The position numbers were made by a program, and so were the translations under genes. 26,316 nt of DNA from a virus (Duplodnaviria; Caudoviricetes): positions 1-26,316 of IMG/VR virus record IMGVR_UViG_3300009161_000197, one strand, 5' to 3'. Position 1 is the first letter of the stretch. Each line of letters begins with the position of its first letter. This document shows positions 1,134-24,773 of the stretch, piece by piece. Under the pieces are notes generated by a model, which saw only the letters and a list, made by a program, of their open reading frames with translations, did not search any database and was not told the DNA's origin.

Positions 1134-1530
1134 TAAGCATAGAGAAATTGACGTTGAAAAGCTTGTAGAGTTAGCTTACTTATATTGTGATGAATGTATT
1201 GAGTCAACAAAAGAGGTAGCAACAGGAAGCGGTAAAATAGTAGAGGTTAAAGAAAGACACTTGCCTACTATTAGTTATTTCCTATTGCATTGGTTAAGAA
1301 GGAATCAATTTGATTTTTATAAAAGGGCTAATTTTTATGTTATATTAAATAGTGATAACCATCCATTATTAGACACTATAAAAAGTATAGACGAACATTT
1401 TAAATCATTAGCAACTGATATAGTAGCCAATGAAGGTAAAGGTATATTCTACGCTAAGAACCGTTTAGGGATGCATGACAAACAACATATTGAAACTAAA
1501 ACCGTAGAAGGATTCGACTTTGATAATTAA
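1126..1530 (+). CDS. terS: Terminase small subunit (probable)
   Basis: 134 aa immediately upstream of and overlapping terL; C-terminal GIFYAKNRLGMHDK resembles the IF.LKN..G..D motif of P22 gp3-like small subunits. Confidence 0.75.
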   Translation: MANKHREIDVEKLVELAYLYCDECIESTKEVATGSGKIVEVKERHLPTISYFLLHWLRRNQFDFYKRANFYVILNSDNHPLLDTIKSIDEHFKSLATDIVANEGKGIFYAKNRLGMHDKQHIETKTVEGFDFDN

Positions 1531-2722
1531 AGGATATAGACCGCACGATAAGCAAAAGGAAATACATCATAGTATAAACCATGAGCCGTACAAGTATTAT
1601 ATTTTAAATATCGGTAGGCAGTTTGGTAAAACTATGCTAGGCATTAATCAATTGCTTTATTGGTCTATGAATGACAAAGGTTGTAATATTGCATGGGTTA
1701 CTCCCATCTATAAGCAATCCAAAAAGGTGTTTGATGAGATGGAAAAGGTTTGTCAACGTAGTGGATTCTTTCAATTCAATAGATCAGATTTAACTATCAA
1801 AGGTTTTGGTTCTACAATACAATTCTTTTCTGGTGAACGTCCTGACAATATAAGGGGTAATACATTCGACTATCTTATAATGGATGAGATAGCATTTAGC
1901 AGAGAGCAGTTATGGAGTGAAGTATTAAGTGCGACCGTATTAGTTAAAGGTAAAAAGATACTGTTTATTTCAACTCCAAAAGGTAAGAACCATTTTTATA
2001 AACTTTCATTACAGCATAACTACGATAATAGATACAAGTACTTTCATTTTTCTAGTTATGACAATCCAATGATTAGCTTTGAAGATTTAGAAGAGCGTAG
2101 ACGTAATTTGCCAGACCATATATTTAGACAAGAATACTTAGCTGAATTTCTAGATAATTCTTCGGGTCTATTCAAGAATGTAAAAGACTGTGTTAATGAA
2201 TTTCCTATATCAACTCCGTTAATGTTTGGTGGTTTAGATATTGGACGAGCAGATGATTATACTGTACTCACTATTATAAACCGTGATAATCAAATGATAC
2301 ACGTTGAACGATGGAGACAGGACGATTGGACTAATATAATAAATAAGGTTGCTGAAGTAATTAATAGATTCAGAGCAAAGATATACGTAGAGGTTAATAA
2401 CCAAGGTGACGTATTCTATGAGATGCTGCATAAACAATGCCGTACATTTATAGAACCTTATGTTACATCTAGTAAAACAAAACCCGTTATGATTGAAGAC
2501 TTAGCATTACTATTTGAGCAAAAGAATATATCTATACTTAATGAAGAGTGGCTAATAAACGAACTAGAAGCCTTTACTTATATTTATGACACAAAGACTA
2601 GGGGTGTTAAGTATTCAGCTCCTCAAGGTGTGCATGATGATGGGGTTATATCTTTGGCTTTAGCAATACAATCTAGAAAAGACTTAATCAAAAAAGGTCA
2701 TTATATTGGTACTCATGCGTAA
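1520..2722 (+). CDS. terL: Terminase large subunit
   Basis: Q motif (PHDKQ), Walker A GRQFGKT, Walker B YLIMDE, coupling motif ISTPKG, RNase H-like nuclease GLDIG...DD and HDDGVISLALA; TTG start. Confidence 0.95.
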   Translation: MIIKGYRPHDKQKEIHHSINHEPYKYYILNIGRQFGKTMLGINQLLYWSMNDKGCNIAWVTPIYKQSKKVFDEMEKVCQRSGFFQFNRSDLTIKGFGSTIQFFSGERPDNIRGNTFDYLIMDEIAFSREQLWSEVLSATVLVKGKKILFISTPKGKNHFYKLSLQHNYDNRYKYFHFSSYDNPMISFEDLEERRRNLPDHIFRQEYLAEFLDNSSGLFKNVKDCVNEFPISTPLMFGGLDIGRADDYTVLTIINRDNQMIHVERWRQDDWTNIINKVAEVINRFRAKIYVEVNNQGDVFYEMLHKQCRTFIEPYVTSSKTKPVMIEDLALLFEQKNISILNEEWLINELEAFTYIYDTKTRGVKYSAPQGVHDDGVISLALAIQSRKDLIKKGHYIGTHA

Positions 2723-12604: not shown

Positions 12605-12625
12605 TATTTAGAATTAATCTAAATA
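12605..12625 (+). promoter_or_regulatory. 21-bp palindromic operator-like site, copy 1 (TATTTAGA-ATTAA-TCTAAATA)
   Basis: Perfect 8-bp inverted arms with 5-nt spacer, upstream of the head operon; near-identical copies at 15296 and 23375. Confidence 0.7.
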
Positions 12626-12664: not shown

Positions 12665-13741
12665 ATGTTACCAATATACAAGCTTACAATTAACGATAAT
12701 GACGAGACGGGCGTAGACTATAACGCGTTTGTTGACACGCCTGCCCACCTAAAAGCGTTTATTGCTTTTGATAAATCTATGCCTTATAAGTTTAAAGAAG
12801 AGCAAAGAATTGTAACGGGTGTTATGATGAGCGCAAATACTTTGATATACCGAAACAGTCCAGATATTGGAGAACATCAAGTTTTCTTTGACGTTGCTAC
12901 TATTAAGCAAATTGTTTTAAAGTTTTTTAAGAACAGTTTTGGAAACAATGTAAATAAGATGCACAATGAAAACGATAAAGTAAACGGTGCTATAATGCTA
13001 GAAAGTTTCTTTATTGATTCAAAGCGTGGTATTAACGCGCCTATTGAATTTAGTAAACAAAATCTACAAGACGGTACTTGGATAGCGTCTTACAAAGTAG
13101 AGAATGACCAACTATGGAACGAAGTAAAAAGCGGGAAGTTTCAAGGTTTTAGCGTCGAAGGAATATTTGACAGAATACAAGTAAATATAAAAACAAATAA
13201 TAAACAAAAGATGAACAAAAAAGAAGTAAGTGGAAAGTCACTTTTCAATTTGATCTTTGGAAAAAGCAAGTTTGAAGATGTGCCAGTTACAGAAGAAACA
13301 GTTTCATCATTTGCGGAGGTTACATCAATAGACGGCACGGTGCTGGCTTATGAGGGTGAACTAGCAATTGATGCGCCTATCTTCGTGATTGATGAGAATG
13401 GCGACAAGTTGCCAGCTCCAGCGTTAGACTATCAATGTGAAATTGATGGTAAAGTATTAATTATTTCAGTTAATGAAAGTGGTTTAATTTCTGCTATTGA
13501 AGACGTTATCGTTGAAGATGCTGAGATGAGCGCTGAGATTAAAGACTCAATCCTTGCAGAAGTTGCTGAAGTAATGAAAAGTACTTTAGAAGCTACGTTT
13601 GCTAAGATTGAAGAATTGACTTCAGAACTTAAAAAACTTAAAGAAGAGAAAGTGAGCAAGTTTCAAAGTGAAGCTAAAACGGGAGTTAAAGAAGTTGCTA
13701 AAATGACAGCAAACGAAATCCTAAAAAATATTAAAAACTAA
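12665..13741 (+). CDS. Prohead protease (XkdF-like) fused to scaffolding protein
   Basis: FVDTPA, EQRIVTGVMM, NKMH, GTWIASYKVEN..LWNEVKSGKFQGFSVEG motifs; acidic then coiled-coil C-terminal half; precedes capsid gene. Confidence 0.85.
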   Translation: MLPIYKLTINDNDETGVDYNAFVDTPAHLKAFIAFDKSMPYKFKEEQRIVTGVMMSANTLIYRNSPDIGEHQVFFDVATIKQIVLKFFKNSFGNNVNKMHNENDKVNGAIMLESFFIDSKRGINAPIEFSKQNLQDGTWIASYKVENDQLWNEVKSGKFQGFSVEGIFDRIQVNIKTNNKQKMNKKEVSGKSLFNLIFGKSKFEDVPVTEETVSSFAEVTSIDGTVLAYEGELAIDAPIFVIDENGDKLPAPALDYQCEIDGKVLIISVNESGLISAIEDVIVEDAEMSAEIKDSILAEVAEVMKSTLEATFAKIEELTSELKKLKEEKVSKFQSEAKTGVKEVAKMTANEILKNIKN

Positions 13742-15328: not shown

Positions 15329-15336
15329 TATCTTTG
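15329..15336 (+). promoter_or_regulatory. -7 element (TATCTTTG) 4 nt before ATG 15341
   Basis: Exact TAnnTTTG immediately after the terminator, where re-initiation is needed. Confidence 0.65.
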
Positions 15337-15340
15337 AACT

Positions 15341-15730
15341 ATGACAATTTTAATAACGAAATCTAGTTTAAACATTATAGCTTTGACATTGTCAGAACTT
15401 GAGGACCAAACACTAGATATTAATTGGCTTTTTAGATTTACTAAAGACGAAGGTAGGCAAGAAATATTTTGCTATTTAAATGATTTAAACGAGTCGACAG
15501 CACGTTATAATTTGTTTAATTTATTGGAAGGTGTAGATGCTACATTCACGAAGTTAGGAGATTATACGTATAGAGTTTATCAAATGCCTGACGGTGGCTC
15601 TTTAGATTATTCCTTAGGTATTCAATGCGAGATAGGTAAAGTAAGAGTTATAGATAACATTATAGTAGTGCCAGCAAGCTTTGAGCCTACGTTAACATCA
15701 AACATTTATGGAGGAGAAACAAACAGCTAG
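15341..15730 (+). CDS. Structural protein (possible head completion/stopper)
   Basis: 129 aa beta-rich (RYNLF, GDYTYRVYQ, EIGKVRV) directly upstream of portal. Confidence 0.5.
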   Translation: MTILITKSSLNIIALTLSELEDQTLDINWLFRFTKDEGRQEIFCYLNDLNESTARYNLFNLLEGVDATFTKLGDYTYRVYQMPDGGSLDYSLGIQCEIGKVRVIDNIIVVPASFEPTLTSNIYGGETNS

Positions 15731-17453
15731 AACGTTTAGCACATTTAGAGAAGTTGCAATCATTGACCCCGTCGAAACAGTAGCTAAAGAAGGGTGGGTA
15801 AAATGGGGTATCGACAATCTTTACCCTCAATTTTTATGGTCTTTATATGTTAACAGCCCAATTCATGGAGGTATAATCAACTCTAAAAATACTTTTATTT
15901 CGGGTGCTGGTTTAAAATATGAAGGTGTTGAAAATTGGGACGAGATTAATAAAAATGGACGATCTAAATATACACTAGACGAACTTGTCGAAATGTACTC
16001 ACTAGACCAAGAAGTTATTAACGGTTATTATATTAAATGCGTTTATGATTCATTAAATCAAAAGTGGCAATTAGAACACTTAGATTTTGAGTTGATGCGA
16101 CCTAACGAAAACGGAACTATATACTATTATTCTGAGAATTGGGCAACGTCTAGACAAAATGATAAAACTAAATTCAAAGAATATACTAGCTTTTTTAACC
16201 GTACAATCGAAACAAAAGAATGCGTTTTATTTGTAAAGGCTAAATCTAGACAATTTATACTAGAAACTAAAAAGCTGACTTCAGGATATTATCCTATTCC
16301 ATTGTACAGCGGTGGTATTGATTCAATATTGACTGATATAGAGATTAATTTCTTTAGATTATCGGAAGTTGTAAACGGTTATAAGGGTGGGACATTGATA
16401 TCTTTGAACAATGGAATACCAGAAAGTGAAGAGCAAGCAGAAAAGATAGTTTATGACCTTAAATTAAACGCTACAGATAAGCGTAAACAAGGCGGTGTAA
16501 GCGTTACTTTCTCTGACGGTAAAGATAGAGAACCTAGCATTGTACAATTAAACGGAAATGACTTAGATAAGCGCTATGAAAGTACAGAGGTTGGACTTTC
16601 TAAAAAGATATTTATTTCGCATTCTGTAATTAATCCTAAAATGTTTGGGTATATTCAAGACAATTCTATGTTTTCACAAGACTTAGAAAATGACTTTAAA
16701 CTATTCAATCGTACATACGTAAAGAAAAGACAAAAGAATATAGCAGACTCTTTGAACTATGTACTTTCAGAACTTAACGGAATGACGGGAGAAATTAGTT
16801 TTAATGAATACGAACTATTTGATAAAGCTGAAGTAATACCTACTACTCCCGTAGCTTTAAAGTTGTCAGCAGAGGACAATGAAACGCAAATACTAGATTT
16901 ATTTGTAAGTTGTGGACGTTCAAAAAGTGATGTTAAAATTATAAAATCTAGTGAATTTAAAAACCAAACAGAAGAGGAAATTATCGAAGGTTTTTTTAAA
17001 GACAAATTTGCTGTTAACGATAATCAAAATAGAATCCTATCCATGCTTTCAAATGGTGAGAGTTATGATGCAATTGTAAAAGCTTTAGATATGAAACCTA
17101 TTGAAGTTTCAAAGATAATTGTAGGGTTACAAAATAATGGTTATTTAGACGGTGGTAACGTTACCGACAAAGGACTTCAAGAGATTGTAAGCAAAGAACA
17201 GATAAGTGTTGTTTATTCTTATGAGAAAAGACCTAACGCGCCCGACTTAGTTAAAGGCGGTAGTTCTAGACCATTTTGCAAAACACTTATCGAAATGGAT
17301 AAAGTTTACACAAGGGAGGAAATAGATACTATCAGCTCAGCGGTTAACCGTGATGTATGGAGTTATAGAGGCGGTTGGTATCATAACCCTAACACAGATA
17401 TTAACACACCTTCGTGTAGACATTTTTGGAAACAAAACGTAATCTTTAAATAA
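15708..17453 (+). CDS. Portal protein with C-terminal extension
   Basis: WGIDNLYPQFL...SPIHGGII..K...I.G.G N-terminus, YYPIPLY, ISH..INP.MFG; extension with helical domain and SRPFC...YRGG...CRHFW. Confidence 0.85.
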   Translation: MEEKQTARTFSTFREVAIIDPVETVAKEGWVKWGIDNLYPQFLWSLYVNSPIHGGIINSKNTFISGAGLKYEGVENWDEINKNGRSKYTLDELVEMYSLDQEVINGYYIKCVYDSLNQKWQLEHLDFELMRPNENGTIYYYSENWATSRQNDKTKFKEYTSFFNRTIETKECVLFVKAKSRQFILETKKLTSGYYPIPLYSGGIDSILTDIEINFFRLSEVVNGYKGGTLISLNNGIPESEEQAEKIVYDLKLNATDKRKQGGVSVTFSDGKDREPSIVQLNGNDLDKRYESTEVGLSKKIFISHSVINPKMFGYIQDNSMFSQDLENDFKLFNRTYVKKRQKNIADSLNYVLSELNGMTGEISFNEYELFDKAEVIPTTPVALKLSAEDNETQILDLFVSCGRSKSDVKIIKSSEFKNQTEEEIIEGFFKDKFAVNDNQNRILSMLSNGESYDAIVKALDMKPIEVSKIIVGLQNNGYLDGGNVTDKGLQEIVSKEQISVVYSYEKRPNAPDLVKGGSSRPFCKTLIEMDKVYTREEIDTISSAVNRDVWSYRGGWYHNPNTDINTPSCRHFWKQNVIFK

Positions 17454-19243: not shown

Positions 19244-20965
19244 ATGGCGAATAACATTAATATAACATTTAGCAAGGCGGATATGGGTCTTGAAAATGTG
19301 GATAATACTTCTGACTTAAACAAACCAATATCTACAGCTACACAAACGGCATTAGATGATAAGGTAGACAAAGAAGCTGGAAGCCGTTTAATAACTAGTG
19401 CTGAAGCTACATTGCTGGGTAATACTAGTGGAACGAATACGGGCGACCAAGACCTTCAAAGCGTTGTAACTGCTGGCAATACTACAGATACAGATATTCA
19501 ATTTGGGGACGGTGTTGGTGTGTTATTAAATAATACTTCAAGGCTTAGAGAGGGTACAATTGATTCAGGTGCTGGTGGTGGTGTTGCTCAAATTTGCGCA
19601 GTTGGTTATGAGTTGAAATGGGAAGCTGGAAGTCAGTATGTAATGGACGGAAACGGTCTTTTAATAAGAGAGGTTAACCATAAATTTACAAGCATTCCAG
19701 ATGCAAATAATGACAATTCACAAGGCTTTTATGCTGGTTCACGTTGGATATTAGATAATGGGGATTTATACATTTGCACAGATTCAACAACCGCTACTGC
19801 TGTTTGGGAATTACAAACTATTGACACCGTGCCAACAGATGGAAGTGTTAAAGCTGTAGAATCTAACGGAGTATTTGACGCTTTAGCAGATAAAGTTGAT
19901 AAGGTTGCAGGAGAAAGACTTATAACAAGTGCAGAAAGTACTTTACTAGGCAATACTTCAGGAACTAATACGGGAGACCAAACACTAGGTTCTTTAAATG
20001 CTGAAGACTTAGCTAATAAAGCAACTAATTTTACAACTGTAAATGATACACTCTATCCAAGTGTTAAAGCGGTTGATGACCATATAAATAGTAAACTTGT
20101 TGGACTTTGGGATGACAGAGGTTCTTATGATGCTTCAGTTAATTTATTTCCTTCAAGTGGGGGAAGTGGCACAGCAGGAGCTATAATGAAAGGTGATATA
20201 TGGACTATTAACGTACAAGGTACTTTAGGTGGTACTGTTATGCACGTTGGTGATACGGTTAGAGCTTTAATAGATTCACCAGCTCAAACTGCAGCAAATT
20301 GGGCTTTACTAGAAAGTGCTATAGGTTACGTTCCTGAAAATGTTACCAATAAAGTTACTACTTTTAGCGGTAATACTACTTCAGATATTAAATATCCAAG
20401 TGTTAAAGCAATTGTAGATAATTATACTAGTTCAAATATTAAAACTATTCTAGGAATTACAACATTAAGCGGAAGTAATACGGGAGATCAAGACTTAAGC
20501 GGTTACCAAGCTACATTAACGGCCACAAACTTAAAGACTTTAGTGGATACTTTTGCAGCTACTACTACGCCTGTAGACGCTGACGTTGTACCGATTACTA
20601 ATAGTGCAGGAACGACAACAAAAAAGCTATCATGGTCTAATTTTAAGAGTACTTTACTAGCTTATTTTGATACTATATTTCCAAGGGTAACAGCAGCTAC
20701 AACGGGGTCTGTAATTTCGTTTAACGTACCAGTAGTGTGGAATACTCCAGCGAGTCCTTCATCTTCTAATTTAACTGACGATTTGACAAATGCAAAAATT
20801 GGATATATTCAAAAGATATACCATAATAAGGCAACCGCTCCGACTGTTCCAGCTGGTTGGGTTTTAATAGGTACAGGAACTTACACAACTTCGACTTTGA
20901 ATATTATATTTGCCGAGTGGGTTTCATCTACTCGCGTTGAATATTGGATTACTAAACCAGCATAA
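19244..20965 (+). CDS. Tail fibre protein, mosaic with internal repeats
   Basis: Thr/Gly/Ser/Asn-rich; GLENVDNTSDLNKPISTATQTALD fibre motif; three SG(T/S)NTGDQ and two YPSVKA repeats. Confidence 0.8.
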   Translation: MANNINITFSKADMGLENVDNTSDLNKPISTATQTALDDKVDKEAGSRLITSAEATLLGNTSGTNTGDQDLQSVVTAGNTTDTDIQFGDGVGVLLNNTSRLREGTIDSGAGGGVAQICAVGYELKWEAGSQYVMDGNGLLIREVNHKFTSIPDANNDNSQGFYAGSRWILDNGDLYICTDSTTATAVWELQTIDTVPTDGSVKAVESNGVFDALADKVDKVAGERLITSAESTLLGNTSGTNTGDQTLGSLNAEDLANKATNFTTVNDTLYPSVKAVDDHINSKLVGLWDDRGSYDASVNLFPSSGGSGTAGAIMKGDIWTINVQGTLGGTVMHVGDTVRALIDSPAQTAANWALLESAIGYVPENVTNKVTTFSGNTTSDIKYPSVKAIVDNYTSSNIKTILGITTLSGSNTGDQDLSGYQATLTATNLKTLVDTFAATTTPVDADVVPITNSAGTTTKKLSWSNFKSTLLAYFDTIFPRVTAATTGSVISFNVPVVWNTPASPSSSNLTDDLTNAKIGYIQKIYHNKATAPTVPAGWVLIGTGTYTTSTLNIIFAEWVSSTRVEYWITKPA

Positions 20966-21973: not shown

Positions 21974-22653
21974 TGGAGTTCATAAAGTACATTACACAGT
22001 CTAACTTACCACCTTACTTGCTATTCTTTGCAATTATATTACTAGGTGCTATGTACTTTTTTAGAAAGCCAATAAGCACAATCTTAACAAATATAAAGTT
22101 TAAGAAATCAATTGATAAGGATATTATAGATTTAAAAAGTCATGACATATTCAACACGCTAGAAAGGGTTAAGAATGAAGCTATGTTTTTAAAGTTTTAT
22201 TCACATGGCAAATATGATGCTACTAAGTCGAGAATGTCATGCGATTTCGTTAGTTTTAAATGTGATGTTTGCTATCAAAAGTTTAATGAGTTTTTAGATA
22301 ACGACTTTACAAAGGTAAGTAGTGATGAGATAAAGAAAATGATATTAGCTGCTATGTGGGGAATGCACGCTGAATATGTTAAGCAAATCAAAGCGCATTG
22401 GAGCGATAGAGGTATAGACAAAACTGATATTGACTATGTTATTCAATTGTTTGAGAAATTCAGACACGATGTAATTGTAAGCTTTCAACACAGAATAGAT
22501 GCTATATTTTCGTGTGAACATTATTTAACTAACTTTGATAAGATATTAGCTTGTTATAACATATTTTCATTCGGTATTGATTTACTGCCAAAGGACTTAC
22601 AAGACACGTTTGAGAATGTTAACGGAAAATTTTACGATATAAAATACAATTAA
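21973..22653 (+). CDS. Membrane-anchored protein at the head of the lysis cassette
   Basis: Single N-terminal TM (YLLFFAIILLGAMYFF) followed by RK and a ~190-aa soluble helical domain. Confidence 0.6.
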   Translation: MEFIKYITQSNLPPYLLFFAIILLGAMYFFRKPISTILTNIKFKKSIDKDIIDLKSHDIFNTLERVKNEAMFLKFYSHGKYDATKSRMSCDFVSFKCDVCYQKFNEFLDNDFTKVSSDEIKKMILAAMWGMHAEYVKQIKAHWSDRGIDKTDIDYVIQLFEKFRHDVIVSFQHRIDAIFSCEHYLTNFDKILACYNIFSFGIDLLPKDLQDTFENVNGKFYDIKYN

Positions 22654-22654
22654 T

Positions 22655-22843
22655 ATGAGAGAATTAAAAAAAAGATGGAATAGTGAAACACCTCACTTTT
22701 TTAAAAAGTTAATCCACGCTGGTATAGTAGTTGGTTTAATTGGGGGTGCATTAGTTACGTTCCCTGTTACTGCTGCAGTAGGTGCGGTGTTAGTTACAAT
22801 AGGCGCAACTGCTGCGACAATTTCAAAGTTGACTAAAATATGA
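22655..22843 (+). CDS. Holin (probable)
   Basis: 62 aa, basic N-terminus, two TM segments, ATGA-coupled to endolysin. Confidence 0.65.
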   Translation: MRELKKRWNSETPHFFKKLIHAGIVVGLIGGALVTFPVTAAVGAVLVTIGATAATISKLTKI

Positions 22844-23286
22844 AGGTTTCACAAATTGGTATTCAATTGATCAAAGATTTTGAGGGCTGTAGATTAAAGG
22901 CTTATGTTGATCCTGGAACTGGTGGATTACCAATTACGATTGGGTATGGAAATACAGCTAGGAAGGATGGCAGTAAGTTTAAACTAGGTGATGTAATTAC
23001 TCAAGAAAGAGCTAATGAACTATTTTTAGAATTACTTCCTAAATACGAAGCTACTGTAATCAAAAACATAAAGGTTACTGTAAACCAAAATCAATACGAT
23101 GCTTTAGTGTCATTCTGTTGGAACTGTGGGAGCTCTGATAGTTTATTTAGATTAGTAAACATAAAAGCAACTGATGAGATTATTCATAAATGGTGGTCCA
23201 CGCATTACATCATGGGCGGTGGTAAAGTGCTTGCAGGATTAGTAAGACGTAGAAAGGTCGAAGCTGATTTGTTTGTAAAGAAATAA
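22840..23286 (+). CDS. Endolysin, GH24 phage lysozyme
   Basis: IKDFEGCRLKAYVD...TIGYG catalytic region, NQNQYDALVSF, GLVRRR..E..LF; no SAR/signal segment. Confidence 0.93.
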   Translation: MKVSQIGIQLIKDFEGCRLKAYVDPGTGGLPITIGYGNTARKDGSKFKLGDVITQERANELFLELLPKYEATVIKNIKVTVNQNQYDALVSFCWNCGSSDSLFRLVNIKATDEIIHKWWSTHYIMGGGKVLAGLVRRRKVEADLFVKK

Positions 23287-23298
23287 AGGTTATATTTG
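23268..23298 (+). promoter_or_regulatory. Consensus Bacteroidota promoter TTTG-N19-TATATTTG driving a small RNA
   Basis: TTTG 23268-23271, 19-nt spacer, TATATTTG 23291-23298. Confidence 0.75.
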
Positions 23299-23302
23299 TA
23301 TC

Positions 23303-23379
23303 GGGTTTTTCATAATTCCCTGTGTTTTTGGTTAGGTTAAATTAATGCTCGTAGCTCCTGTTACGGGCATTTCTTATTT
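23303..23379 (+). ncRNA. Candidate small RNA with an anti-start-codon seed (UUUUUCAUAAUU)
   Basis: Bounded by a consensus promoter and a terminator hairpin; no plausible + strand ORF before the hairpin; U-rich. Confidence 0.6.
23344..23379 (+). terminator. Rho-independent terminator
   Basis: AATGCTCGTAGC-TCCT-GTTACGGGCATT 12-bp stem (two G-U pairs favour the + strand) followed by TCTTATTT. Confidence 0.75.
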
Positions 23380-23395
23380 AGAATTAATATAAATA
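23375..23395 (+). promoter_or_regulatory. 21-bp palindromic operator-like site, copy 3 (TATTTAGA-ATTAA-TATAAATA)
   Basis: 20/21 identical to copy 1; ends 20 nt upstream of the -33 element of the early promoter. Confidence 0.65.
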
Positions 23396-23415
23396 GCAAT
23401 TATTTTATTATAAAG

Positions 23416-23446
23416 TTTGTTATATTCAATATTATAACTAACTTTG
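23416..23446 (+). promoter_or_regulatory. Consensus Bacteroidota promoter TTTG-N19-TAACTTTG for the early operon
   Basis: TTTG 23416-23419, 19-nt spacer, TAACTTTG 23439-23446; A-rich leader to ATG 23480. Confidence 0.85.
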
Positions 23447-23479
23447 AAACGTCATAAGACATAACTAATAATAAAAATT

Positions 23480-23620
23480 ATGAAAAAAGAAAACACGTAC
23501 ATCGCACCGCCATTAGGTATCTGCATTAAATGGTGGAAATCAAAAGGACAAGCCGAAGCAACTACAGGAAGCTTCAACTATGAATTATACTTACAGTATT
23601 TAAAAGCAATAAACAAATAA
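23480..23620 (+). CDS. Hypothetical early protein (46 aa, MKKENTYIAPPLGICIKWW...LKAINK), not in ORF track
   Basis: First ORF after the early promoter, strong A-rich initiation region, stop 2 nt before next ATG. Confidence 0.75.
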   Translation: MKKENTYIAPPLGICIKWWKSKGQAEATTGSFNYELYLQYLKAINK

Positions 23621-23622
23621 TT

Positions 23623-23841
23623 ATGAAAAGCAGAGCAAACACAACATACGTCAATTATATGGACGTTGAGTTAGAAGTAGAATACGAAGATACCTACGAC
23701 AATAGATTTCCTGAAGATGGACAAACGATCTATGTTCACCGAGTTTATTGCGCCGGTGTTAATATCACTGGTCTATTCGATGTAGACAAAGGACAGATGA
23801 GATACGATTTAATTAACCTTTACTTAGAAACTATAGTATGA
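23623..23841 (+). CDS. Hypothetical early protein (72 aa)
   Basis: AATTATGAAAA start context; ATGA-coupled to next gene. Confidence 0.75.
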   Translation: MKSRANTTYVNYMDVELEVEYEDTYDNRFPEDGQTIYVHRVYCAGVNITGLFDVDKGQMRYDLINLYLETIV

Positions 23842-24089
23842 AAAACTTAAACGACTTAATGCAGTTAACTGCTGAAATGATGCAGACAGAAGGTAAAAGT
23901 AATAAATTTTTTATTCGAATTTATGGACACGTGCAAAAAATAGAAGTTACATATTACAAAAACGGTTGGAGCGCAGAATCAGATATAAAACCTATCGAAA
24001 GAAGTGCTTACTTTAACAATACTGAACAAATTGAATTATTATACTGGCATTTAAAATTATTATTAAAAAGTAATGACTATGAAAATTGA
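23838..24089 (+). CDS. Hypothetical early protein (83 aa)
   Basis: Coupled ORF in early cluster. Confidence 0.75.
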   Translation: MKNLNDLMQLTAEMMQTEGKSNKFFIRIYGHVQKIEVTYYKNGWSAESDIKPIERSAYFNNTEQIELLYWHLKLLLKSNDYEN

Positions 24090-24258
24090 AATGAATGAAG
24101 GTTTTGAGATCACAGAAGAGATTATCAAAATAGCGAACGGTTATGATTTCTACACATCATATATAGATAACTACGGACAAATGATGGAAGCTAAAGAAAA
24201 AAATACAAAAATAATGATTAAATTAAATAATTTAGGAGTTAAAAATTTAAATAAATAA
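24073..24258 (+). CDS. Hypothetical early protein (about 60 aa; start 24073 or 24079)
   Basis: Fills the gap before erf; YDFYTSYIDN motif. Confidence 0.65.
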   Translation: MTMKIEMNEGFEITEEIIKIANGYDFYTSYIDNYGQMMEAKEKNTKIMIKLNNLGVKNLNK

Positions 24259-24260
24259 TT

Positions 24261-24773
24261 ATGAAAATATACGCAAAAATACACGAAGCTAAGCAAGAGA
24301 TAGGAGTAGTTAAGAAAAATGCAAAGAACCCGCACTTTAAAAATACTTATGCTGATTTAAACGCATTAATTGAAGCGGTTGAACCAGTACTACTAGAAAA
24401 GGGTTTAATACTATTACAACCGATTAAAGACGGCAAGGTGTTCACACAGATAATAGATATTGATACTTTTGAGATGGTCGAAAGTAGTATTGATTTAAGC
24501 CCTAACTTAACAGCTCAAGCATTAGGAAGCCAAGTTACTTACTATCGTAGATATACTTTACAAAGTTTAATGAGCTTACAAGCTGATGATGATGACGGTC
24601 AAAAAGCAAGTGCGCCACAATCAATTGCTAAACCAATTTGTTCTCCTGCAGCATTCGAGAAAGCAGTAAGTAGATACGAAGGTTTAGAGTTAGACGTGTT
24701 TGATAAACTTAAAACAGTATATATATTAACAGCACAACAACAATTAGAAATTAACGAAATAACTAAAAACTAA
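24261..24773 (+). CDS. erf: ERF-family single-strand annealing recombinase
   Basis: KNPHFKNTYADL, GSQVTYYRRYTLQSLMSLQADDDDG signature. Confidence 0.92.
   Translation: MKIYAKIHEAKQEIGVVKKNAKNPHFKNTYADLNALIEAVEPVLLEKGLILLQPIKDGKVFTQIIDIDTFEMVESSIDLSPNLTAQALGSQVTYYRRYTLQSLMSLQADDDDGQKASAPQSIAKPICSPAAFEKAVSRYEGLELDVFDKLKTVYILTAQQQLEINEITKN

Follow-up and report, generated by a model that had tools for sequence, protein, structure and literature searches.

Positions 23268-23379 of the Bacteroidota-type phage record IMGVR_UViG_3300009161_000197 (Caudoviricetes, IMG/VR; all 26,316 bp of it, with an estimated completeness of 76% and every gene on the + strand, are hereafter called the window) lie between the structural/lysis genes and the early genes. 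As judged from the sequences of related phages, they hold a small-RNA unit that is real and conserved, a variant, carried by phages, of a regulator type already described, namely the FopS type of small RNA (sRNA) of Bacteroides thetaiotaomicron, and the proposed link of this unit to the early genes is well supported. Taken as a whole, we read the stretch as a conserved, self-contained gene for a FopS-like RNA of about 77 nt that likely pairs with the regions around the start codons of early genes in the same phage and would thereby block their translation, a reading that we consider probable, if only slightly so.

The small-RNA unit was present in 34 viral contigs besides the window. A search with the endolysin, the product of the gene directly upstream, left 80 relative loci, in 26 of which the unit follows the endolysin gene directly or lies close to it; motif scans combined with a covariance model built solely from the phage relatives (R1) added 8 viral contigs, each scoring at least 60 bits. 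The first loose motif scan had returned mostly mirror images of gene starts, which were separated from true units by R1, and in the window itself R1 gave a single match, the unit, at 73.6 bits. The exact 18-mer GGGTTTTTCATAATTCCC, tried as a probe of viral contigs, led to one true relative, the copy in locus L084 being a gene-start image and not the unit. The core of the 5' seed, TTCATAATT, was unchanged in all 21 aligned sequences, and a second motif resembling GGTTAGGTTAA was nearly so. The consensus structure of 21 relatives consisted of the terminator helix alone, with compensatory changes in 9 of its 12 pairs; at least six unrelated stem sequences were found, all able to pair, and relatives had runs of 8 to 9 T. 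A -7 box of the form TAnnTTT(G/A) stood at a constant distance, with further divergence in some relatives (e.g., L047 and L052), and was retained under a different upstream neighbour in loci L037, L048, L169, L238 and L219. In these alignments, an invariant single-stranded part joined to a structure-constrained terminator is the signature of a small RNA. It is by this conservation in related phages, and not by statistics of the window, that the unit exceeds chance: the pattern TTTG-N19-TAnnTTTG has only two full matches in the window (23268-23298 and 23416-23446), with 1.64 expected.

A preliminary description of the window had proposed that a separate small RNA is encoded here on the + strand, between a promoter and a terminator of its own, and had named conservation of seed, promoter and terminator in related phages as a check; the relatives support the proposal and show this conservation. 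The same description had offered an alternative, that the minus-strand micro-open reading frame (micro-ORF) MKNPIQI is the functional element. By eye, this micro-ORF is not conserved: some 7 codons follow its ATG in the window, L039 has 3 and L049 has 8, and a 1-base indel (TATCGGG versus TATGGG) shifts its frame between close relatives, so that this alternative is removed.

Within the window, the seed is a perfect complement of the start regions of four early ORFs over 10 to 12 nt (Table 1). The claim of the preliminary description that TTTTTCATAATT is exactly complementary to the start region of ORF 23480 was confirmed; the start context that it had seen shared by ORFs 23623 and 24261 is an exact AATTATGAAAA at both, the remaining exact copy in the window being the minus-strand image within the unit itself; and its statement that structural genes do not have this context agrees with the presence of AATTATG at 0 of 27 late ORF starts. 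The duplex predicted at the third target makes a second contact with the leader (AUUAACC) and was the second best among all 40-nt windows scanned. An energy-only duplexfold scan of the window placed its top match inside the coding region of the erf gene; such a scan is noisy because of G-U pairs, and it was replaced by counts of perfect complements with controls. By these counts, at least 9 perfect pairs were found at 4 of 11 early starts versus 1 of 27 late starts (p 0.019). Statistics drawn from the window alone are modestly above chance: AATTATGAAAA with at most one mismatch occurs 5 times where 4.2 are expected and is thus not enriched. At 23618-23625 and 24256-24263, AATTATG arises from the stop-TT-start junction (TAATTATG) of neighbouring early ORFs.

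The contrast between early and late genes became far larger across loci. For 22 loci, each ORF start region (-20 to +12) was compared with the 45-nt 5' part of its own locus's unit, and at least 9 perfect pairs were found for 45.5% of 154 early-side ORFs versus 0.7% of 150 late-side ORFs. Counting unique start regions, the figures were 57/130 on the early side versus 1/123 on the late side, and a control with the seed read backwards gave 3/130 and 0/123. Downstream of the endolysin gene, AATTATG starts were present at 75 of 178 ORFs where the locus has the RNA and at 1 of 291 in the 54 endolysin-relative loci without it. The claim that the seed is antisense to start codons of early genes is thereby strengthened well beyond the window. 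The first ORF behind the early promoter had 8 to 14 perfect pairs in every locus, and codes for differing proteins among the phages yet matches throughout. Lineages differ in how the match is made. In the long form, which is that of the window, pairing extends into the coding side (AUGAAAAA, with the start motif ATGAAA(AA) recognized by eye); in the short form (CATAATTTTTAG versus leader CTAAAAATTATG) it extends into the leader, CUAAAAAUUAUG pairing with CAUAAUUUUUAG (by eye); and a third lineage (L242) has its own 16-nt perfect match to the first early gene, TTCATAATTTTGTTTT (also by eye). Duplexes of an RNA with its own start regions averaged -16.8 kcal/mol (z -3.1 versus shuffled start regions), and pairs within a form were 2.5 to 3.8 kcal/mol better than pairs across forms, in a comparison of 20 unique pairs left after script rules had dropped 10 of 30 candidates.

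The unit occupies the first half of the 193-bp gap that separates the structural/lysis genes from the early module, and its parts are set out in Table 1. All letter-level statements of the preliminary description about the promoter, the U-rich tract and the terminator hairpin are correct, and so is its GGG-TTTTTCATAATT-CCC 5' end; if the spacing of FopS genes applies, with 4 nt between the -7 box and +1, the RNA would start at G23303, where that description had also placed it. In the predicted fold of a 78-nt RNA (23303-23380; -20.6 kcal/mol, z -3.8), most of the 5' part stays unpaired and the terminator hairpin forms. The second conserved motif may be a site of extended pairing or of protein binding. 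The terminator of the small RNA also closes the structural/lysis operon, and the promoter that follows it, to judge from its sequence and place, likely drives the early operon.

Table 1. Parts of the small-RNA unit, its predicted targets and neighbouring genes (window positions)
Feature	Position	Strand	Remark
-33 element TTTG of small-RNA promoter	23268-23271	+	within last codons of endolysin gene
-7 element TATATTTG of small-RNA promoter	23291-23298	+	19 nt after TTTG
Predicted small RNA, ~77 nt	23303-23379	+	3' end within U-tract
5' seed GGGTTTTTCATAATTCCC (GGG-TTTTTCATAATT-CCC)	23303-23320	+	
Invariant core of seed, TTCATAATT	23309-23317	+	anti-start CAT at 23311-23313
Second conserved motif GGTTAGGTTAA	23330-23340	+	conserved alignment columns
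Intrinsic terminator	23344-23379	+	hairpin 23344-23371 (12 pairs), then TCTTATTT; U-tract 23370-23379
Second promoter, TTTG-N19-TAACTTTG	23416-23446	+	just ahead of early ORFs; counterpart conserved downstream of RNA in relatives
Predicted target 1: start of ORF 23480-23620, AATTATGAAAAA	23476-23487	+	12-nt perfect complement of 23306-23317; duplex -18.1 kcal/mol
Predicted target 2: start of ORF 23623-23841, AATTATGAAAA	23619-23629	+	11-nt perfect complement; -18.2 kcal/mol
Predicted target 3: start of ORF 23838-24089	23837-23846	+	10-nt perfect complement; -25.1 kcal/mol
Predicted target 4: start of Erf-like recombinase gene, AATTATGAAAA	24257-24267	+	11-nt perfect complement
Large terminase gene	1520-2722	+	upstream of unit
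Head-protease-like gene	12665-13741	+	upstream of unit
Portal gene	15708-17453	+	upstream of unit
Tail-fibre gene	19244-20965	+	upstream of unit
Phage lysozyme/endolysin gene	22840-23286	+	directly upstream of unit
Small ORFs and Erf-like recombinase gene	24261-24773 (recombinase)	+	downstream of unit

Several features of the surrounding DNA were recorded alongside. A 21-nt repeat, TATTTAGAATTAATATAAATA, is found just past the terminator (23375-23395) and, 95% alike, in the gap ahead of ORF 12665 (12605-12625), and the same words come after the terminator in long-form relatives; a phage regulator may act at this repeat, or it may be a piece of a phage-specific promoter. Boxes of the form TAnnTTTG at 2764-2779, 20905-20912 and 15329-15343 stand 0 to 5 nt before the called starts of ORFs 2777, 20910 and 15341, and if these boxes are promoters, the mRNAs of these ORFs would be leaderless or almost so. 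Among cultured phages, positions 22600-24300 had no DNA match and 23265-23500 gave chance-level matches only; the endolysin is less than 47% identical to that of any deposited phage. A scan of the window for tRNA and tmRNA genes gave none. The closest endolysin relatives (L003-L024, 78 to 82% identity) have no small RNA in the approximately 10 to 210 nt past the endolysin stop; in these, a small ORF, hydrophobic by eye, begins a few bases past the stop and is perhaps a membrane protein of the lysis cassette. In L040 (3443-3646), and also in L009, L037 and L041, a different stretch of about 190 nt takes the place next to the endolysin gene, again preceded by the TATATTTG box, and ends in a G+C-rich hairpin and T-run; L037 carries the FopS-like RNA next. 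This stretch contained no ORF, an Rfam search of it at E 1 gave nothing, and it may be a second phage RNA.

How such an RNA could act is suggested by FopS itself. According to the FopS report (PMC11697453), B. thetaiotaomicron has 14 paralogous FopS sRNAs of about 65 to 70 nt, transcribed from canonical primary-sigma promoters and made up of a 5' seed that is single-stranded and a single terminator; the RNAs pair beside the start codon of susC mRNAs and block translation in vitro, as FopS-10 does next to the start codon of susC(BT_3983), and the RNA-binding protein RbpB, which binds the 5' portion of FopS, antagonises the family. The sRNA GibS acts in like manner (PMC7366714). By analogy, a host primary-sigma-type promoter would yield an RNA of about 77 nt starting at G23303, whose free 5' end would pair in trans with the start-codon regions of phage early mRNAs, that of the first early ORF foremost, and this pairing would occlude the start codons and repress early translation; that the outcome would be repression is proposed because of the action of FopS-10 on susC(BT_3983). 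Given its own host-type promoter and its place at the 3' end of the late operon, the RNA could damp the synthesis of early proteins from the start and more strongly late, although the timing of its action, including the early-to-late switch or lysogeny named in the preliminary description, is a conjecture.

A number of observations weigh against this account of repression of the phage's own early genes. The RNA and the early operon have promoters of one class, with which a simple late switch fits poorly, and the second conserved motif, GGTTAGGTTAA, is without a demonstrated partner. Seed pairing is A/U-rich, and 42 of 2000 shuffled 43-nt seeds (about 2%) had a perfect complement of at least 12 nt to some one of the 38 start regions of the window. 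The loci compared are related, so that the Fisher-type early-versus-late counts overstate independence and effectively represent three or four lineages. At four loci where R1 matches are weaker and the gene context is another (L104, L164, L122 and L106), no complementary start lies downstream. Because AATTATG can come from a stop-TT-start junction, its role could lie in translational coupling and not in RNA pairing. In a sample of a Flavobacterium genome (320 kb), 9.6% of 219 long ORF starts had at least 9 perfect pairs with the seed, mostly ATGAAAAA starts, and AATTATG starts numbered 8/219; with about 10% of host-type starts matching, the main targets could be host mRNAs, although the global silencing of host mRNAs raised in the preliminary description is conjectural. 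Finally, in a lake metatranscriptome that contained 9% of the sampled words, low-depth contigs covered parts of the endolysin and early genes and none covered the unit, a result that is uninformative either way.

The proposal that the RNA mainly targets host mRNAs, such as those of secreted or outer-membrane proteins (e.g., SusC-like transporters), and so would serve host takeover or receptor removal, is compatible with phage targets and is, as the principal role, rather unlikely but not to be neglected. In its favour, besides the Flavobacterium starts just described, the 5' end is nearly that of FopS, which targets susC-type starts (PMC11697453); sRNA-like copies with both motifs lie in chromosomes of Sphingobacterium, Flavobacterium, Cyclobacteriaceae and Paludibacter-type Bacteroidales; and exact complements of both motifs stand at real long-ORF starts in Bacteroidota, several of them lipoprotein- or SusC-like by eye. 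This two-motif target form is rare, however, and TTAACCTAAMC...AATTATGAA, tried as a general Bacteroidota leader, was rejected after yielding 6 matches versus 1 control in 401 Bacteroidota genomes. No specific host target is named by this explanation, and it leaves unexplained why early phage starts match at 4 to 5 times the host background and why AATTATG starts are almost confined to loci that carry the RNA. The constancy of the match at the first early ORF, which holds in every lineage examined, would also follow if the unit acted in cis, its anti-start stretch folding onto the start of that ORF in transcripts that read through the terminator, whether from the late operon or from the unit's own promoter, and silencing that ORF, while transcripts from the early promoter lack the stretch and are translated. 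A 208-nt read-through RNA (23303-23510) does pair the stretch with AAAAAUUAUGAAAAA of ORF 23480 in prediction (-44.7 kcal/mol, z -4.0; none of 200 shuffles reached this). Yet a strong, covarying terminator lies between the partners, with 8 to 9 T in relatives, and the unit retains its own promoter, both of which argue for a separate RNA over a cis role; moreover, matches reach several early ORFs up to about 1 kb off, and the same design acts in trans in FopS (PMC11697453). We regard action in cis as improbable.

Repression in trans by a separate RNA must also be set against there being no regulatory RNA at all, the stretch then consisting of an operon terminator and conserved intergenic DNA (a protein-binding site or an inverted gene-start relic) and the complementarity being a by-product of A/T-rich starts. 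The weak in-window statistics would suit this, as would the conserved 21-nt repeat beside the terminator, which indicates that the intergenic DNA holds DNA-level signals too. It is nonetheless made highly improbable by the opposition of an invariant single-stranded part to a hairpin that varies in sequence yet conserves its pairing, by a -7 box at fixed distance even in other upstream contexts, by a register that is the same as that of experimentally mapped FopS genes, by the lack of conservation of the micro-ORF (by eye), and by the strong contrasts between early and late genes and between loci with and without the RNA. A further idea, to which we give very little credence, is that the RNA is mainly a putative decoy for a host RRM-type, RbpB-like protein, which would shift host sRNA networks rather than pair with mRNAs: RbpB binds the 5' portion of FopS (PMC11697453), and the AGGTTAA-type motif is common to phage, FopS and host copies and has no clear mRNA partner, but the invariant anti-start core and the matching early starts would be left unexplained.

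If repression of early genes by a FopS-like RNA is correct, a simple RNA-based temporal control would operate in phages of an ecologically dominant phylum. Bacteroidota mostly do not use Shine-Dalgarno-led initiation, and post-transcriptional control in this phylum has been tractable only since GibS and FopS; the phages would supply natural seed/target pairs, with lineage-specific changes, for start-codon occlusion without a Shine-Dalgarno sequence, and a ready gene-silencing tool for Flavobacteriia-type hosts. A broader proposal is offered tentatively, as something that may well hold but that we would stop short of calling probable: Bacteroidota phages would carry a diverged FopS-type sRNA together with a matching AAUUAUG-type "address" in almost every second early gene. 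Such a module, consisting of RNA only and an RNA counterpart of T4 RegA, would set the timing of early-protein synthesis or put a ceiling on it, and its seed would also tie the phage to the host regulon of secreted and outer-membrane proteins, possibly receptors included. The last point follows from the seed being that of a phylum-wide class of host sRNAs, which would plug the phage into that regulon. Phage-borne FopS relatives had previously been mentioned once, PMC11697453 noting a FopS sequence in one Caudovirales phage and interpreting it as a vehicle of spread; a limited search of the literature on phage-encoded sRNAs in Bacteroidota, or on FopS and phages, returned only that remark. New here are a diverged FopS-like RNA fixed at the border of the late and early modules of uncultured phages and early starts that bear the matching motif.

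The relation to FopS was examined with real FopS loci, retrieved by means of the FopS-10 5' end as given by a primer in supplementary file 4 of PMC11697453. Six true loci score 70.3 to 77.5 bits with the Rfam model (RF04319), for which the gathering score is 56. The window gave 13.5 bits (E 4.4) in a 101-nt search and no match in a 1.2-kb search, and its relative L039 gave 20.9 bits over model positions 25-71 only, both below the gathering score; by the Rfam definition the phage RNA is thus not a FopS member, though it is FopS-like. More generally, an Rfam scan of the window and its relatives, which the preliminary description had suggested, found no family at threshold; weak top matches (trpB, L10 leader and others) aligned to the terminator only and were rejected. 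In the other direction, the phage-built R1 found the FopS site in 13 of 20 FopS-pattern loci (20 to 29 bits, E 0.001 to 0.07). The two share a common register, in which TAnnTTTG is followed by 4 nt and then by G(T/G)GTTTTTCATA, a spacing that most FopS-pattern loci show. Their first 12 bases are identical at 11 positions (GTGTTTTTCATA versus GGGTTTTTCATA; as RNA, G(U/G)GUUUUUCAUA), the anti-start CAU included, after which the sequences diverge until a common AGGTTAA (AGGUUAA) and then the terminator. The FopS seed, designated R1/R1' and unrelated to the name of our model, covers consensus positions 1-21, and its middle, GUAUUAGAUUUAAGG, differs from AAUUCCCUGUGUUUUUGGUUAGG in the window. Also alike are the canonical -7 promoter with an RNA start a few bases on (the +1 of the window being assigned by register), a length of about 65 to 77 nt, and a free 5' region with a single Rho-independent terminator. 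On this evidence the phage RNA is probably a distant relative of FopS, a likeness not recognized in the preliminary description; GibS of B. thetaiotaomicron (RF04182) is of the same known kind.

FopS-like sequences were not confined to phages and Bacteroides. A two-motif scan of one genome per prokaryotic species returned an estimated 320 places, nearly all in Bacteroidota and of two kinds, mirror images of real gene starts and sRNA-like units with a hairpin and T-run and no opposite gene. Units of the latter kind were found in Sphingobacterium, Cyclobacteriaceae and Paludibacter-type Bacteroidales; of 120 loci returned, 100 were searched, and 20 of these gave 23 matches. One two-motif host locus had a weak Rfam match to a Bacteroides sRNA. 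R1 had 19 matches (E 0.01 or better) in one Sphingobacterium genome, and 2 and 1 in two Flavobacterium genomes. In Sphingobacterium genome G002 (loci L370-L389), at least 19 near-identical units of TTCATAATTTAGGTTAATAATTGGTTAGGTTA followed by a hairpin and T-run were seen, many in a row every 1 to 3 kb on one contig; the FopS Rfam model reports none of these at E 0.1, and by their sequence they look like an unannotated multicopy FopS-like family outside the Bacteroidaceae. The Rfam FopS model thus overlooks similar sRNA families, which occur in Sphingobacterium, Cyclobacteriaceae and Flavobacterium as well as in phages of these groups. An AGGTTAA-type second motif is common to phage units, FopS and the host sRNA-like copies. 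Unlike FopS, a multicopy chromosomal family with 12 to 15 paralogs per Bacteroides genome, the phage RNA has 1 copy in the 26-kb window and keeps a fixed place, at the junction of lysis and early modules, in uncultured non-gut phages. FopS targets susC genes, whereas the best matches of the phage RNA are its own early genes. One member of FopS derives from a 3' untranslated region, and the phage RNA may in part do likewise.

Small phage RNAs that base-pair with phage mRNAs are otherwise represented by P22 sar, lambda OOP, P1/P7 c4 and P4 CI. Of these, sar and OOP are cis-antisense transcripts from the opposite strand, an arrangement not shared by the RNA described here, which lies on the same strand as its targets, the nearest about 170 nt downstream and past both the terminator and the second promoter. 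The c4 and sar RNAs occlude a ribosome-binding region, and c4 and CI sit upstream of their targets on the same strand; these last two are cut from an operon transcript and give prophage immunity against one operon, whereas the phage RNA has its own promoter and terminator and several dispersed targets with a common start motif, and the window bears no sign of lysogeny. A protein also offers a likeness in outline. T4 RegA is a translational repressor whose many early mRNA targets have a loosely common A/U-rich motif at their start codons, and the phage RNA resembles it as one factor acting, as we propose, on many early starts, although RegA is a protein and the two have no relation in sequence or structure.

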